This document shows positions 35,265-45,274 of a stretch of DNA of 64,000 nt, piece after piece (positions within the stretch are counted from its first letter, which is position 1; every line of letters starts with the position of its first letter). The stretch lies in IMG/VR virus record IMGVR_UViG_3300043618_000034, positions 2,287-66,286 of that record; one strand, given 5' to 3'. A program made the position numbers and the translations under genes. Under the pieces are notes generated by a model. That model saw nothing but the letters and a program-made list of their open reading frames with translations, ran no database searches and was not told the DNA's origin. This stretch comes from a virus. Taxonomy: Duplodnaviria > Caudoviricetes.

Positions 35265-35279
35265 CTCTGGACGGGGGTG

Positions 35280-35765
35280 ATGGCCATGGCCGGCCGAGGC
35301 CCCCAGCCGAAGAACCCGTCGAGGCGCGCACGCGCGAACAGGGACCCGGTCTCGCAGACGCTCCTGCGCTTCGAGCAGGCGGAGGCGCCGGAACTTCCCA
35401 CCCTTCAGGTGATGAAGGACGGCGACCTCGTCGAGCACTCGTGGCCCGCGCGCACCCTGGACTGGTGGGAGATGTGGAGGGCGTCCCCGCAGGCGGAGCA
35501 CTTCTCCTCGACCGACTGGGACTTCCTCCTCGACACGGCCATCGTGCACGCTCGCCTCTGGTCGGGCGAGGTGTCGGCAGCGGCTGAACTGCGGCTTCGT
35601 GTCGCGAAGTTCGGCGCCACTCCGGAGGACCGCGCCCGGCTGCGGATGCAGTTCGCGCAGGCCGACGAGGCGGATAGCAAGCGTCCGGCCGGTGGCTCGT
35701 CGAAGCAGCGGTATGCGGATCTCAAGGTGCTTCCTGGGGGTGGCGATGCCGTGGAGGGGGCCTAG
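35280..35765 (+). CDS. terS: Terminase small subunit
   Basis: MAGRGPQPK...RRARAN, W..W..SPQA, TDWDFLLDTA, ELRLRVAKFGATPEDRARLR; overlaps terL start. Confidence 0.85.
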   Translation: MAMAGRGPQPKNPSRRARANRDPVSQTLLRFEQAEAPELPTLQVMKDGDLVEHSWPARTLDWWEMWRASPQAEHFSSTDWDFLLDTAIVHARLWSGEVSAAAELRLRVAKFGATPEDRARLRMQFAQADEADSKRPAGGSSKQRYADLKVLPGGGDAVEGA

Positions 35766-37379
35766 GTACGCCGGGGAGATGCCGACCCTGGGCTATGACG
35801 TCTTGGACTGGATGAGCGAGATGCTGGCTGCACCGGACCGGACGGACTTCGAATCGCTGGTTCTCACTCGTGAGCAGGCTCAGTTCATCCTGAACTTTTA
35901 TGCCGTCGACCCGCGCACGGGGAGGAGGCGGTACCGCCGGGGCGTGCTTTCCAGGCCGAAGGGTTGGGGAAAAGCCCTGTGCTCGCCGCCATTGCCTGCG
36001 CGGAGGCGCTGGCGCCGGTCGTTCCTGACGGCTGGGACGCGGACGGCGAGCCCGTAGGGCGCCCGTGGGCCGATCTGCGAACTCCGTGGGTGCAGCTCGC
36101 GGCCGTATCTGAGGATCAGACCCGCAACGCGTGGGCTCCGCTGCTGGAGATGCTCCGCGAGGGGCCGGCTCTCGACGAGTATCCGGGGCTTGAGGCTCTG
36201 GACACTTTCGTGAACCTCCCCAAGGGCCGCATTGAGTTCGTGACGAGCGCGGCGACGTCCCGTGAGGGCAACCGTCCGGTGTTCTGCGTGCTCGACCAGA
36301 CGGAAGAGTGGCGGCCGTCGAACGGCGGTGTGAAGCTCGCGGCGACCTTGCGCAGGAACCTCGGCAAGACGAACGGCACGAGCATCGAGTCGCCGAACGC
36401 CTATCTCCCCGGCGAGGGGAGCGTGGCGGAGGACTCGGCGGAGTATTGGAAGCGGATCGCTGAGGGGCGAGCTCGGGACGACGGCCTGCTGTACGACCAC
36501 CGTGAAGCCGACGCCGGTACGGACATGACGGATCGCGAGTCTCTGCTCGCTGGCCTGCGCTTCGTCTATGGCGATTCGGCAGAGGCTGCGGGCGGCTGGG
36601 TTGACCTGGAGCGGATCGCCGCGGAGGTGTGGGACCCGTCGACTCACCCGCAGGACGCCCGGCGCTTCTACTTGAACCAGATCACTCACGCGTCCGACTC
36701 GTGGATCTCGCAGCCGGAATGGGCCGGGGTTGCTGCAGCGGACGCCGTCGTGGGGCAGGGCGAGGAGATCGTCATGGGCTTCGACGGGTCACGCCGTCGG
36801 TCCCGCGGCGTGACGGACGCGACGGCCCTGGTGGGCTGCCGCGTCTCCGATGGCCACCTGTTCCTGCTGGGCTGCTGGGAGCAACCTGAAGGGCCGTTCG
36901 GGATCGACTGGCAGGTTCCGACGATGGAGGTGCTGGCCACCGTGGAGGACGCTTTCAAGCGCTACCGGGTAGTCGGCATGTATGCGGACCCCGCGAAGTG
37001 GGAGTCGCACATCGCGACTTGGGAGGCGAAGCACGGCCGTCGCTTGAAGGTGAAGTCGACGGTGCAGCATCCGATCGAGTGGTGGATGACGGGCGGGCGG
37101 TCGAACTTGATCGTGCGCGCGCTGGAGAAGTTCCGCTCGTCCGTCGTGGACGGCGAGCTCACGCATGACGGGTCGAGCGTTCTGGCGCGGCACGTGTTGA
37201 ATGCCCGGCGACGCGAGTCCCGCAGCGGTATCCAGATCGCCAAGGAGCATCCCGAGTCACCCCGGAAGATCGACGCGGCTGTCGCCGCAGTTCTGGCCTG
37301 GCAGTGCCGGGTCGACGCGGTTGCCAAGGGCCTCGGCAAGAAGAAGCGCAGTTCGGGAAGGGTGGTGGTCCTCCGGTGA
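35746..37379 (+). CDS. terL: Terminase large subunit; needs a -1 frame change at 35967-35973 (544 aa when joined)
   Basis: Frame 1 gives ...SRPKGWGK, the -1 frame continues SPVLAAIA...; Walker B LDQTE; nuclease GFDGS and KIDAAVA. Confidence 0.9.
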
Positions 37380-38812
37380 CGACTCCCACCCTCCCGCTGA
37401 TCGGCCTCTCCGACGACGAGCTGCAGATCCTGACGATGCTCCGCTCGGACCTGCTTTCCCAGCGCTTCAAGCTGGAGCTGTTCGACGCGTACTTCGGCGG
37501 CGAGCAGCTGGTGCGCGACCTCGGCATCAGTATCCCGCCCCAGCTGAAGGGGCTGCATACGGTCATCGGCTGGCCGCGGATCGGTATTGAGGCCCTTGAG
37601 CAGCGCCTCGACTTGGAGGCGTTCCGGTGGGCTGACGGCTCTGACGGCGCGGACTTGGACGAGATCGCTGAGGCGAATGACCTGTACGACGAGTCGTCGC
37701 TGGCGCACCTGGACGCGCTGACTTACGGCCGCGAGTACATCACGGTGGGGTCGGCGGACGACCCTGATTCCCCGCCGCTGATCACGTTCGAGTCGCCGCT
37801 GGACATGACGCTCGACTGGGATGCGCGTCTGCGGCTGCCGCGGTTCGCGCTGCGGGAGTCGGTCGACAAGTGGGACTTCGGGCTGGCGCCTGACGAGCGG
37901 CTGGTCAGCCTGTACTTGCCGGACGAGACCATCTTCGCGGTGGAGGCCAATGGGGGCTGGGAGGTCATCGACCGGGATCAGCACCGCCTCGGGCTGCCGC
38001 CGGTTCTGCGGATGGCGAACCGCCAGCGCACCGCGGACCGGGTGGGCAAGTCCGAGATCACCCCCGAGGTCATGTCGATCACCGATGCGGCGTGCCGCAG
38101 GTTGATGGGCATGGAGGTTGCGGCCGAGTTCTTCGGGGCGCCGCAGCGGTACATCCTCGGCGCGTCGGAGTCTGCCTTCCAGGATGCCGAGGGCAATACG
38201 AAGAGCGCCTGGGAGACGTACATCGGCCGTGTCCTGGCACTGGAGCGGGACGAGGACGGCCAGGTCCCGACCGTCGGCCAGTTCACTGCCCATGACCCGT
38301 CAGGCCAGACGAAAATCATCGACTTGTACGCCCGCATCATGGCCACCCAGCTCGGTCTTCCGCCGCACATGCTGGGATACACCAGCGACAACCCCGCCAG
38401 CGCGGACGCGATCCGCTCCAGTGAGGCCATGCTGGTGAAGAAGGCCGAGCGACGCGTCAAGCGGTTCGGTGCCACTCACCGGGATGCGATGCGGCTGGCT
38501 CTGTGGGTGCGTGACGGCACTCCGCCGGACCGGAGTCGGCGTATCGAGACGGTGTGGCGCAACCCTGCGACTCCGACGCTGGCAGCTCAGACGGACGCGG
38601 CGGTGAAGCTCGCGCAGGCGGGCATCGTCCCGGCGGACAGTGATGTGCTGCTGGAGATGGCCGGCCTGTCGGAGGACCAGCGCCGCCGGGTCGCCGCCGA
38701 CAGACGGAGGGCGCAAGGCGCCTCTCTGCTATCCCGGCTGACGCAGGCAGGAGCCCAGGAGGCGCTGCCCGCCGACGAGTCGGAGGCCGACGATGGCGAC
38801 GAGAGTCTCTGA
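37376..38812 (+). CDS. Portal protein (SPP1 gp6-like family)
   Basis: GWPRIGIEALEQRLDL...AHLDALTYG...NPASADAI...WRNPATPT; follows terL. Confidence 0.9.
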   Translation: MTTPTLPLIGLSDDELQILTMLRSDLLSQRFKLELFDAYFGGEQLVRDLGISIPPQLKGLHTVIGWPRIGIEALEQRLDLEAFRWADGSDGADLDEIAEANDLYDESSLAHLDALTYGREYITVGSADDPDSPPLITFESPLDMTLDWDARLRLPRFALRESVDKWDFGLAPDERLVSLYLPDETIFAVEANGGWEVIDRDQHRLGLPPVLRMANRQRTADRVGKSEITPEVMSITDAACRRLMGMEVAAEFFGAPQRYILGASESAFQDAEGNTKSAWETYIGRVLALERDEDGQVPTVGQFTAHDPSGQTKIIDLYARIMATQLGLPPHMLGYTSDNPASADAIRSSEAMLVKKAERRVKRFGATHRDAMRLALWVRDGTPPDRSRRIETVWRNPATPTLAAQTDAAVKLAQAGIVPADSDVLLEMAGLSEDQRRRVAADRRRAQGASLLSRLTQAGAQEALPADESEADDGDESL

Positions 38813-44848: not shown

Positions 44849-45274
44849 ATGGCCGCGAACAGCCGCACCGCATCCACCCGAAAGACCACCCCATCGCGAG
44901 CCGCCCGAGCGTCGCGCGAACTGGCGCCAGCAGTTCGAGGAGACGTCGATGAGATCGACGAACTCGATGCGGCCGACGCGCAGGAGGTGGAGGCCGTCGG
45001 CAAGCACATCACTGTCGCTCTTTGCGGCGAGGGGATGCGTGTCGCGCCTGCCGGAACCTGGCCTGTGTCAGCCCAGCGAGCCCTGCGCCAGGGAGACTTC
45101 GACGGTTTCATGGCTGCCGTGCTTCACGAGGAGGACTACGAGCTCTACGAGGAGCTCGACCCGACCTTCGACGAGATCAACCTGTTCATTGAGGATGCAG
45201 GGAACCTCTCGGGTGAGTCTCAGGGAAAATCGCGTGGACCCAATCGGTCGTCAAGGCGCACGCGGAATCGGTAG
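44849..45274 (+). CDS. Tail assembly chaperone (gpG-like)
   Basis: Position after tail tube gene; ends shortly after slippery G_GGA_AAA. Confidence 0.85.
   Translation: MAANSRTASTRKTTPSRAARASRELAPAVRGDVDEIDELDAADAQEVEAVGKHITVALCGEGMRVAPAGTWPVSAQRALRQGDFDGFMAAVLHEEDYELYEELDPTFDEINLFIEDAGNLSGESQGKSRGPNRSSRRTRNR

Follow-up and report, generated by a model that had tools for sequence, protein, structure and literature searches.

The 64,000-nucleotide (nt) stretch of viral DNA analyzed here, called the window in what follows, makes up most of a 66,286-base IMG/VR provirus record (IMGVR_UViG_3300043618_000034, positions 2,287 to 66,286) that CheckV rates as complete, and its close relatives are located in Streptomyces genomes. 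We describe the gene for its large terminase subunit, terL, in which the Walker A motif is split between two reading frames at a slippery heptamer where, very probably, a fraction of ribosomes shifts back by one base. The elements found or predicted at this junction are listed below; the clade mentioned in the list comprises the window and ten close relatives with the same frame break.

35746..35973, + strand: TerL N part, frame 0, 76 codons (MPWRGP...SRPKGWGK); matches phrog_9, terminase large subunit, at E=1e-16; ratio of non-synonymous to synonymous substitution rates (dN/dS) 0.069
35920..35928, + strand: GGGAGGAGG, a Shine-Dalgarno (SD)-like string and candidate 5' signal, 38 nt 5' of the heptamer
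35967..35973, + strand: slippery heptamer G_GGA_AAA, inside Walker A (between GWG and KS); invariant in 11 clade members
35973..37379, + strand: TerL C part, -1 frame, SPVLAAIA... to the stop, 468 codons; matches phrog_9 at E=1.9e-61 and Pfam TerL_nuclease; dN/dS 0.08
35974..35980, + strand: spacer of 7 nt from the heptamer to the predicted helix
35981..35990, + strand: 5' arm, GCUCGCCGCC, of the predicted stimulatory helix (RNAalifold consensus)
36041..36051, + strand: 3' arm, GGaCGGCGAGC, of the predicted helix, which encloses two inner hairpins
36055..36057, + strand: frame-0 stop TAG; position identical in 10/11 clade members

The start codon, ATG 35746 (MPWRGP...), is conserved across all 11 clade members and in the TerL of phage SF1. 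From there, frame 0 reaches AAG GGT TGG GGA AAA GCC and then stops at TAG 36055-36057, in agreement with a preliminary description of this DNA, which had given a stop at 36057 and a product of 103 amino acids (aa); this product consists of 76 TerL codons followed by 27 out-of-frame codons. The GGGAAAA at 35967-35973 is phased as X_XXY_YYZ, the frame-0 codons being GGA (35968-70) and AAA (35971-73). An open -1 frame spans 35964-37379 and encodes GKSPVLAAIA..., the remaining ATPase and the nuclease. The identity of the protein is clear from its Walker A ATPase N-domain, its RNase-H-like nuclease C-domain and the position of the gene between those for the small terminase subunit, TerS, and the portal protein; furthermore, 2042 phage records that match TerL carry the annotation 'terminase large subunit'.

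The Walker A motif is present only after a -1 shift. A tandem -1 slip gives SRPKGWGK-SPVL, where the intact motif is SRPRGWGKSPFV in phages SF1, VWB and ReT1v, whose unbroken TerL is 60-65% identical to the C part. The shifted product, ...SRPKGWGK/SPVLAAIA, is colinear with ...SRPRGWGKSPFVSAIA of these same phages and with about 130 intact loci, with zero residues gained or lost relative to unbroken homologues; the restored motif that had been predicted from the window's letters is thereby the one that intact homologues carry. Both codons at the slip site had also been called uncommon, and they are: in the late genes, GGA accounts for 49 of 628 Gly codons and AAA for 10 of 194 Lys codons, while TTA is absent.

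We compared terL across a homologue set of 158 related loci drawn from IMG/VR and GTDB genomes. The same frame break is found in ten close relatives (L005-L009, L052, L085-L087 and L089), which show 85-94% protein identity and were recovered from isolate genomes (such as those of Streptomyces sp. NPDC093598 and NPDC017936), metagenome-assembled genomes (MAGs) and metagenomes. In all clade members TGGGGAAAAG is invariant, and synonymous change flanks it on either side: GGT, GGC or GGG before TGG, and AGC or AGT followed by CCT or CCG after. The preliminary description had proposed that homologues be checked for a conserved break and GGGAAAA amid varying synonymous sites, and this is the pattern seen in the 11 members. 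When all 7-codon intervals are scanned over 545 codons, the lowest synonymous diversity starts at codon 75/76, which is the slip site (0.124 versus a gene mean of 0.37), and codons 75-76 have zero diversity. Median pairwise dN/dS is 0.069 in the N part (76 codons) and 0.080 in the C part (468 codons), at a median dS of 0.66 and 0.76, respectively, and no further stop or frame break occurs in any of the eleven members over ~545 codons. A tree of the TerL C part places the frameshifted sequences of this group in a single clade (support 0.973) within intact TerLs. The nearest cultured phages, SF1, SF3, VWB and ReT1v (60-65% identical), have an unbroken TerL reading TGG GGN AAG TCN at the junction.

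Some of the loci (L087, in JBLNCO010000052.1, as well as L144, L127 and L134) were binned in MAGs assigned to Hyphomicrobiales, Kofleriaceae, Verrucomicrobiota or Gammaproteobacteria. Since their TerL and codon usage are of the Streptomyces-phage type, these labels are probably binning errors.

Pattern scans of IMG/VR, together with a look-up of short N-terminal products, revealed at least three more TerL lineages in which TGGGGAAAAG breaks the frame at this same codon, each nested among intact relatives and each with its own stem 6-9 nt downstream of the heptamer. Lineage 2 (L164/L311 and L165/L314) has a TerL 44% identical to the window's, and its nearest relatives (L312, L313, L315 and L316; 91-94% protein identity) are intact. 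Only the two frameshifted genomes of this lineage have AGG AGG 11 nt 5' of the heptamer, where the intact ones have CGC CGC or CGC CGG, and only they have a 13-15-bp helix 6 nt past the heptamer. The 3' arm of this helix alters the protein, which reads HWSAEG versus HWTKDG or RWNEDG in the intact relatives. The two genomes share 84% DNA identity and show many synonymous differences just outside the cassette. The heptamer of lineage 3 (L209/L350 and L396; TerL 51% identical to that of the window) is followed at 7 nt by a perfect 12-bp hairpin. One pair of this hairpin goes from A-U to C-G between L350 and L396 by two synonymous substitutions (TCA/GCT to TCC/GCG). In L351, an intact relative at 89% identity, the residues are unchanged but are spelled with codons that make for a weaker stem (TTT CTT TCG ... 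GGC). Lineage 4 (L397/L398) has the heptamer and a 13-bp hairpin ~8-9 nt downstream.

Directly past the lineage 3 hairpin, 14 codons after the heptamer, both L350 (1540-1545) and L396 have a TTA Leu codon in the TerL frame (GAG GGG TTA), and the intact L351 has ATG there. TTA is a rare codon dependent on bldA, and it is central to a proposal made for phage Hau3, to which we return below.

Intact alleles lying one base away from the broken form were also found: TGG GGA AAA AGT, with a run of five A (L131, L357), and TGG GGA AAG AGC (L315). The simplest history would be that the break arose several times, each time as one base was lost from TGG GGA AAA AGY or TGG GGA AAG AGC; deletion of a single base from an A5 or G5 run is the likely historical origin, and the stimulators would have been acquired or strengthened after the base was lost.

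As for signals around the site in the window itself, the consensus fold and almost all single-sequence folds contain the predicted 10-bp helix, whose pairs are kept in 8-10 of 10 sequences, with one G-C to G-U change. Its codons, CTC GCC GCC and GAC GGC GAG, are invariant or change only from G-C to G-U in the frameshifted clade; intact relatives, encoding the same residues, vary freely at these codons (CTG GCG GCA, CTG GCC GCG and others). In folds of 100 nt, the mean z-score is -0.97 for the clade and -2.2 for the other frameshifted lineages versus -0.18 for intact homologues, a shift that is suggestive only, coming as it does from few independent lineages. A test of ungapped helices sets apart lineages 2 and 3 (12-15 bp versus an intact maximum of 12), and a single-sequence fold of the 120 nt past the window's heptamer gives z = -0.62, which is not significant alone. 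We regard the window-clade helix as plausible, not proven. On the 5' side, GGGAGGAGG uses the rare Arg codons AGG AGG in writing the RRR of ...TGRRRYRRG..., where intact homologues have CGN codons, and a GGAGG within 54 nt upstream is present in 11/11 frameshifted clade members versus 3/130 intact homologues. No Rfam family was detected at E<=1 for 35700-36300.

We consider it highly probable that TerL is made by programmed -1 ribosomal frameshifting at G_GGA_AAA. This view is supported because break and heptamer are kept across a dS of ~0.8 with both halves under purifying selection, and because synonymous diversity is minimal at the site and the arrangement recurs independently with lineage-specific stimulators. 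The anatomy of the gene, its colinearity with unbroken homologues, the conservation of the break under selection and its recurrence in other lineages are matters of direct observation. A programmed -1 frameshift inside Walker A was the central proposal of the preliminary description, and comparative evidence now supports it strongly.

Several points weigh against this interpretation. Among the close matches there is no cultured plaque-forming phage with a frameshifted TerL; all frameshifted examples are prophages or metagenomic contigs, so that the viability of such phages has to be judged from selection and patchy distribution. The window-clade helix is invariant and displays no compensatory change or covariation among the 10 sequences folded with RNAalifold; its ungapped length of 8 bp, versus an intact median of 7, is ordinary for a GC-rich gene, and the fold z-scores of the window are overall only -0.6 to -1.5. 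The upstream GGAGG lies 35-38 nt from the heptamer, beyond stimulatory range, and is a candidate signal only (SD-like elements stimulate -1 shifting at 6-17 nt). Inspection was of assembled contigs, with which low-level DNA heterogeneity at the G4A4 run is compatible. Finally, one intact locus, L088, sits within the frameshifted clade of the window, meaning that the state can be lost.

The L088 locus (740-900; MAG Streptomyces sp. SMAG_U896) has an intact TerL reading GGT TGG GGT AAA TCG. It is without the heptamer, without AGG AGG and without the helix codons, all together, and its Ser codon is TCG rather than AGC. Since all three elements lie within ~130 nt, a single recombination could remove them, which suggests a short recombination tract from an intact relative and not a simple one-base reversion. 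The joint loss is consistent with the three elements being functional; however, it does not constitute independent evidence.

The reversibility seen in L088 and the minority of frameshifted genomes in lineage 2 (two of six close relatives) both favor the best surviving alternative, a tolerated 'saviour' indel: a deletion in an A5 or G5 run would have produced an intrinsically shifty heptamer by chance, and the same -1 slippage would rescue TerL while playing no regulatory role, with selection acting on the heptamer alone. The intact sequences of L131 and L357 (A5) and of L315 (TGG GGA AAG AGC), each a single deletion away, fit this history. Mere tolerance, however, sits poorly with what has gathered around the site. 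The window clade has added clade-specific helix codons and AGG AGG, lineage 2 has AGGAGG at 11 nt and a helix that changes amino acids, lineage 3 has synonymous changes that strengthen its hairpin and others that are compensatory, and four kinds of recoding recur at one and the same junction. We therefore hold the saviour indel to be improbable.

Transcriptional slippage or DNA phase variation at the G4A4 run might also restore the frame in some mRNAs or genomes, as the break falls within two adjacent homopolymer runs and inspection was made at the level of contigs. Productive slippage by bacterial RNA polymerase needs, in known examples, ~7-9 A or T, however, and runs of four are too short; neither would slippage explain the X_XXY_YYZ phase, the stems at 6-9-nt spacers or the AGGAGG at 11 nt. 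No indel variant was seen in the inspected contigs. Taken as a whole, such an origin of the frame change is very unlikely.

A single-base break in a homopolymer is the commonest error or pseudogenising lesion, and a sequencing error or a decaying gene had been retained as alternatives in the preliminary description. We found in the Logan contigs of soil-metagenome runs X1 and X2 a match to the stretch without gap or difference. Because X1 and X2 may be the source sample, independent support comes from X3, an 820-nt contig from another soil study that is 87% identical and spans the site without an indel, and from the other assemblies, more than ten of which share the break independently; the relatives are too diverged to be duplicates of a single assembly. 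Both sides of the break show dN/dS of 0.07-0.08 at dS ~0.8, there is no second lesion, and the late operon otherwise looks undamaged (portal, capsid region, chaperone, a 1643-codon tape measure and others), all of which makes it exceedingly improbable that the prophage is decaying and its TerL inactive, or that the break was introduced in sequencing or assembly.

Hardly more credible is a split TerL, in which a 103-aa N protein and a separately initiated 471-aa protein (from TTG 35964, in the -1 frame with AAGGG just upstream) would assemble in trans: internal restart at this codon was rejected since relatives carry CTG (six) or GTG (three) there, and lineages 2-4 CTG, GTG or TTG without pattern, so that no start codon is conserved, and the P-loop would be cut between GWG and KS.

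Turning back to programmed frameshifting, we infer from these sequences that the shift takes place on the ribosome, and it may proceed as follows. Ribosomes would start at ATG 35746 and read 76 codons, bringing GGA into the P site and the rare AAA, which may prolong the pause, into the A site. A fraction of them would slip back by one base on G_GGA_AAA, with tRNA-Gly and tRNA-Lys re-pairing on GGG AAA, and would continue with AGC CCT GTG..., completing Walker A (GWGKS) and a full-length TerL of ~544 aa. Ribosomes that do not slip would stop at TAG 36057 and release the 103-aa product. The predicted helix 35981-35990/36041-36051 would stimulate the slip, perhaps together with the upstream AGGAGG, where SD-like pairing or slow AGG codons possibly raise efficiency. 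Most ribosomes would probably terminate at 36057, leaving TerL at a fraction of the TerS level. The purpose may be to hold TerL low relative to TerS, or to make its synthesis conditional on rare-tRNA supply or growth state. No tRNA genes are encoded within the 64-kb window.

The stop codon that ends frame 0 is created where the TerL frame uses GTA, a rare Val codon (C GTA GGG, window 36053-36057). The termination product has 103 aa wherever this TAG is kept, that is, in 10 of 11 clade members, and it is represented in at least 11 protein clusters of a large protein collection, one of which holds 36 sequences from 29 contigs. In the other frameshifted lineages the frame-0 tail measures 9, 15, 16 or 30 codons, and there is no general length.

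Three further features were identified in the late operon:

35277..35765, + strand: TerS, small terminase subunit; Pfam Terminase_7, E=9.6e-32; its 3' end overlaps the TerL start
37304..38812, + strand: portal protein; Pfam SPP1_portal, E=1.9e-19; the gene order is TerS-TerL-portal
45223..45229, + strand: second G_GGA_AAA, the tail-assembly-chaperone G/GT frameshift site; G open reading frame (ORF) 44849-45274, T extension to 45681

The terL ATG at 35746 lies 20 nt within the end of terS, whose stop is TAG 35763-35765. Because of this position, terS and terL are probably translationally coupled, which bears on any argument about the TerS:TerL ratio.

The G and T parts at the second heptamer both match tail-assembly-chaperone PHROGs, the T part matching the C-terminal third of fused families. 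With both strands scanned, GGGAAAA occurs twice in the 64 kb, at 35967-35973 and 45223-45229, and its phase is identical in the two genes; the earlier claim that the TerL and tail-chaperone sites are the same in sequence and phase is thus borne out by the ORFs and the PHROG matches. Two occurrences per 64 kb are not above chance (1.44 expected). The late operon has just two frame breaks, and each carries one of the heptamers; this placement, along with conservation in relatives, is what goes beyond chance.

The junction between KGWG and K is also the site of other kinds of recoding. At least five TerL genes of at least two lineages carry an in-frame 6-nt insert, TGG GGT TGA GGN AAG (GWG-stop-GKSP), at the same junction (L096:2995-3012, L098 and L114, in genome contigs, L290 on the minus strand and L399:460-480). 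Synonymous sites vary beside this insert, and in L114 the landing codon is GGA. Eight protein clusters (P0018 and P0021-P0027) hold 74-aa products ending in ...KGWG, indicating that the form is widespread. With a take-off Gly, a stop and a landing Gly, the insert looks like a +6 hop over UGA; an alternative is UGA readthrough, giving GWGWGKS. In a further contig, with TerS upstream and the portal gene downstream of TerL, a 4-nt insert follows GWG (L400:860-890, TGG GGT TGA C AAA AGC CCA), and TerL resumes in the +1 frame (DKSPLMSAIS...). This GGU UGA C is similar to CUU UGA C, the shifty stop of prfB.

For phage Hau3, a bypass in TerL is said to have been described by Smith et al. in 2013 in J Bacteriol. 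More recently, UUA-triggered bypassing was proposed in the TerL of Streptomyces phage Hau3, of prophage StrepC.1 and of an S. catenulae prophage (Antonov et al. 2023, PMC10732093). At the Hau3 TerL g6/g7 site, which from its sequence reads TGG GGC TTA CTC CGG TAA GGA, the proposal is that ribosomes bypass UUA and a 10-nt gap; this bypass site has experimental support, and a junction peptide GWG/NDPLL... was detected by mass spectrometry in E. coli (PMC10732093). Disrupted genes amounted to 3 of 100 ter genes in that survey, all of the UUA type (PMC10732093). The preceding KGWG may stimulate as a nascent peptide (Atkins et al. 2016, PMC5009743), and a split terL in a Microbacterium prophage, which is without a slippery heptamer, has been discussed speculatively (PMC9030533).

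Four forms of recoding are thus seen at KGWG/K: the -1 shift at G_GGA_AAA (at least four lineages), the 6-nt GGT TGA GGN, the 4-nt GGT TGA C, and the UUA bypass of Hau3. Part of the cause may lie in the nascent KGWG peptide, which could make the ribosome prone to recoding. We also put forward, as possible rather than probable, that the KGWG/K junction of actinophage TerL is a general translational gate that different mechanisms have converted repeatedly. If this is true, synthesis of the packaging motor would be deliberately coupled to host translation, through tRNA-Lys(UUU) or tRNA-Gly, RF2 or the bldA tRNA, and packaging would be timed or limited in temperate Streptomyces phages.

Tailed phages package their DNA with the large terminase, an essential motor encoded in single copy, and gene callers and annotators take a frame break in it as a sign of a dead prophage. 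Here, selection maintains a terL break in a whole clade of prophages of soil Streptomyces, and also in at least three unrelated lineages. Such prophages deserve annotation as intact, with a joined coding sequence. The case also illustrates that two reading frames can share the coding of a catalytic P-loop. The -1 sites, the Hau3 bypass and the TGA-insert forms at one codon make up a natural series of convergent recoding solutions, which opens tests of a KGWG nascent-peptide effect, of rare-tRNA sensing and of the dosing of a DNA-cutting enzyme.

Among known frameshift systems, the closest in its signal is the -1 frameshift of the tail-chaperone G/GT genes of long-tailed phages, reportedly the subject of work by Levin et al. 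in 1993 and by Xu, Hendrix and Duda in 2004. Its heptamer and phase in this same phage (45223-45229) are those of the window's terL, and lambda has G_GGA_AAG. From G/GT, two proteins with a common N-terminus are made in a fixed ratio; both are functional, and the frame-0 product G is the major functional species. In terL, by contrast, the enzyme can only be the trans-frame product, since the whole ATPase core and the nuclease are missing from what frame 0 encodes.

The E. coli dnaX gene makes tau and gamma by means of A_AAA_AAG, with an SD-like element 10 nt upstream and a stem-loop 6 nt downstream. Lineage 2 matches this three-part layout: its AGGAGG precedes the heptamer by 11 nt, and its 13-15-bp helix follows the heptamer at 6 nt. 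In the window clade, 7 nt separate the heptamer from the predicted helix, but the SD-like string is 38 nt off rather than 10. Of the two dnaX products, both of them used, the shifted one is the shorter, whereas in terL the shifted product is the long, essential one. In this respect the IS3 orfA-orfB transposases are nearer: their catalytic protein is formed only as a trans-frame fusion, like TerL, with a heptamer and a 3' structure, and frameshifting holds the level of a DNA-cutting enzyme low. They differ in the gene and in the type of mobile element, and their shift falls between two domains, versus inside the P-loop of one domain in TerL.

Hau3 stands closest by gene. The TerL family, the host genus and the dependence of an essential packaging enzyme on recoding are all shared with the window, as is the junction, where recoding follows a nascent KGWG and decoding resumes at the Lys codon of GK(S/D)P. 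A Hau3-type bypass was nevertheless rejected for the window's TerL, which agrees in the GWG/K junction alone and offers neither a UUA nor a coding gap with a landing codon. Where Hau3 has UUA after the take-off Gly, the window has AAA after GGA, and its late genes are free of TTA. The Hau3 type involves a coding gap of 7-10 nt with a take-off/landing pair; the window's terL has no insert and one base fewer than intact homologues, and it combines a canonical X_XXY_YYZ heptamer with a predicted 3' stem and a -1 shift. A canonical -1 heptamer in terL was not described in any paper that our literature search brought up, and the proposed -1 heptamer form is new within two things already known, TerL recoding at GWG/K and -1 programmed ribosomal frameshifting in general.

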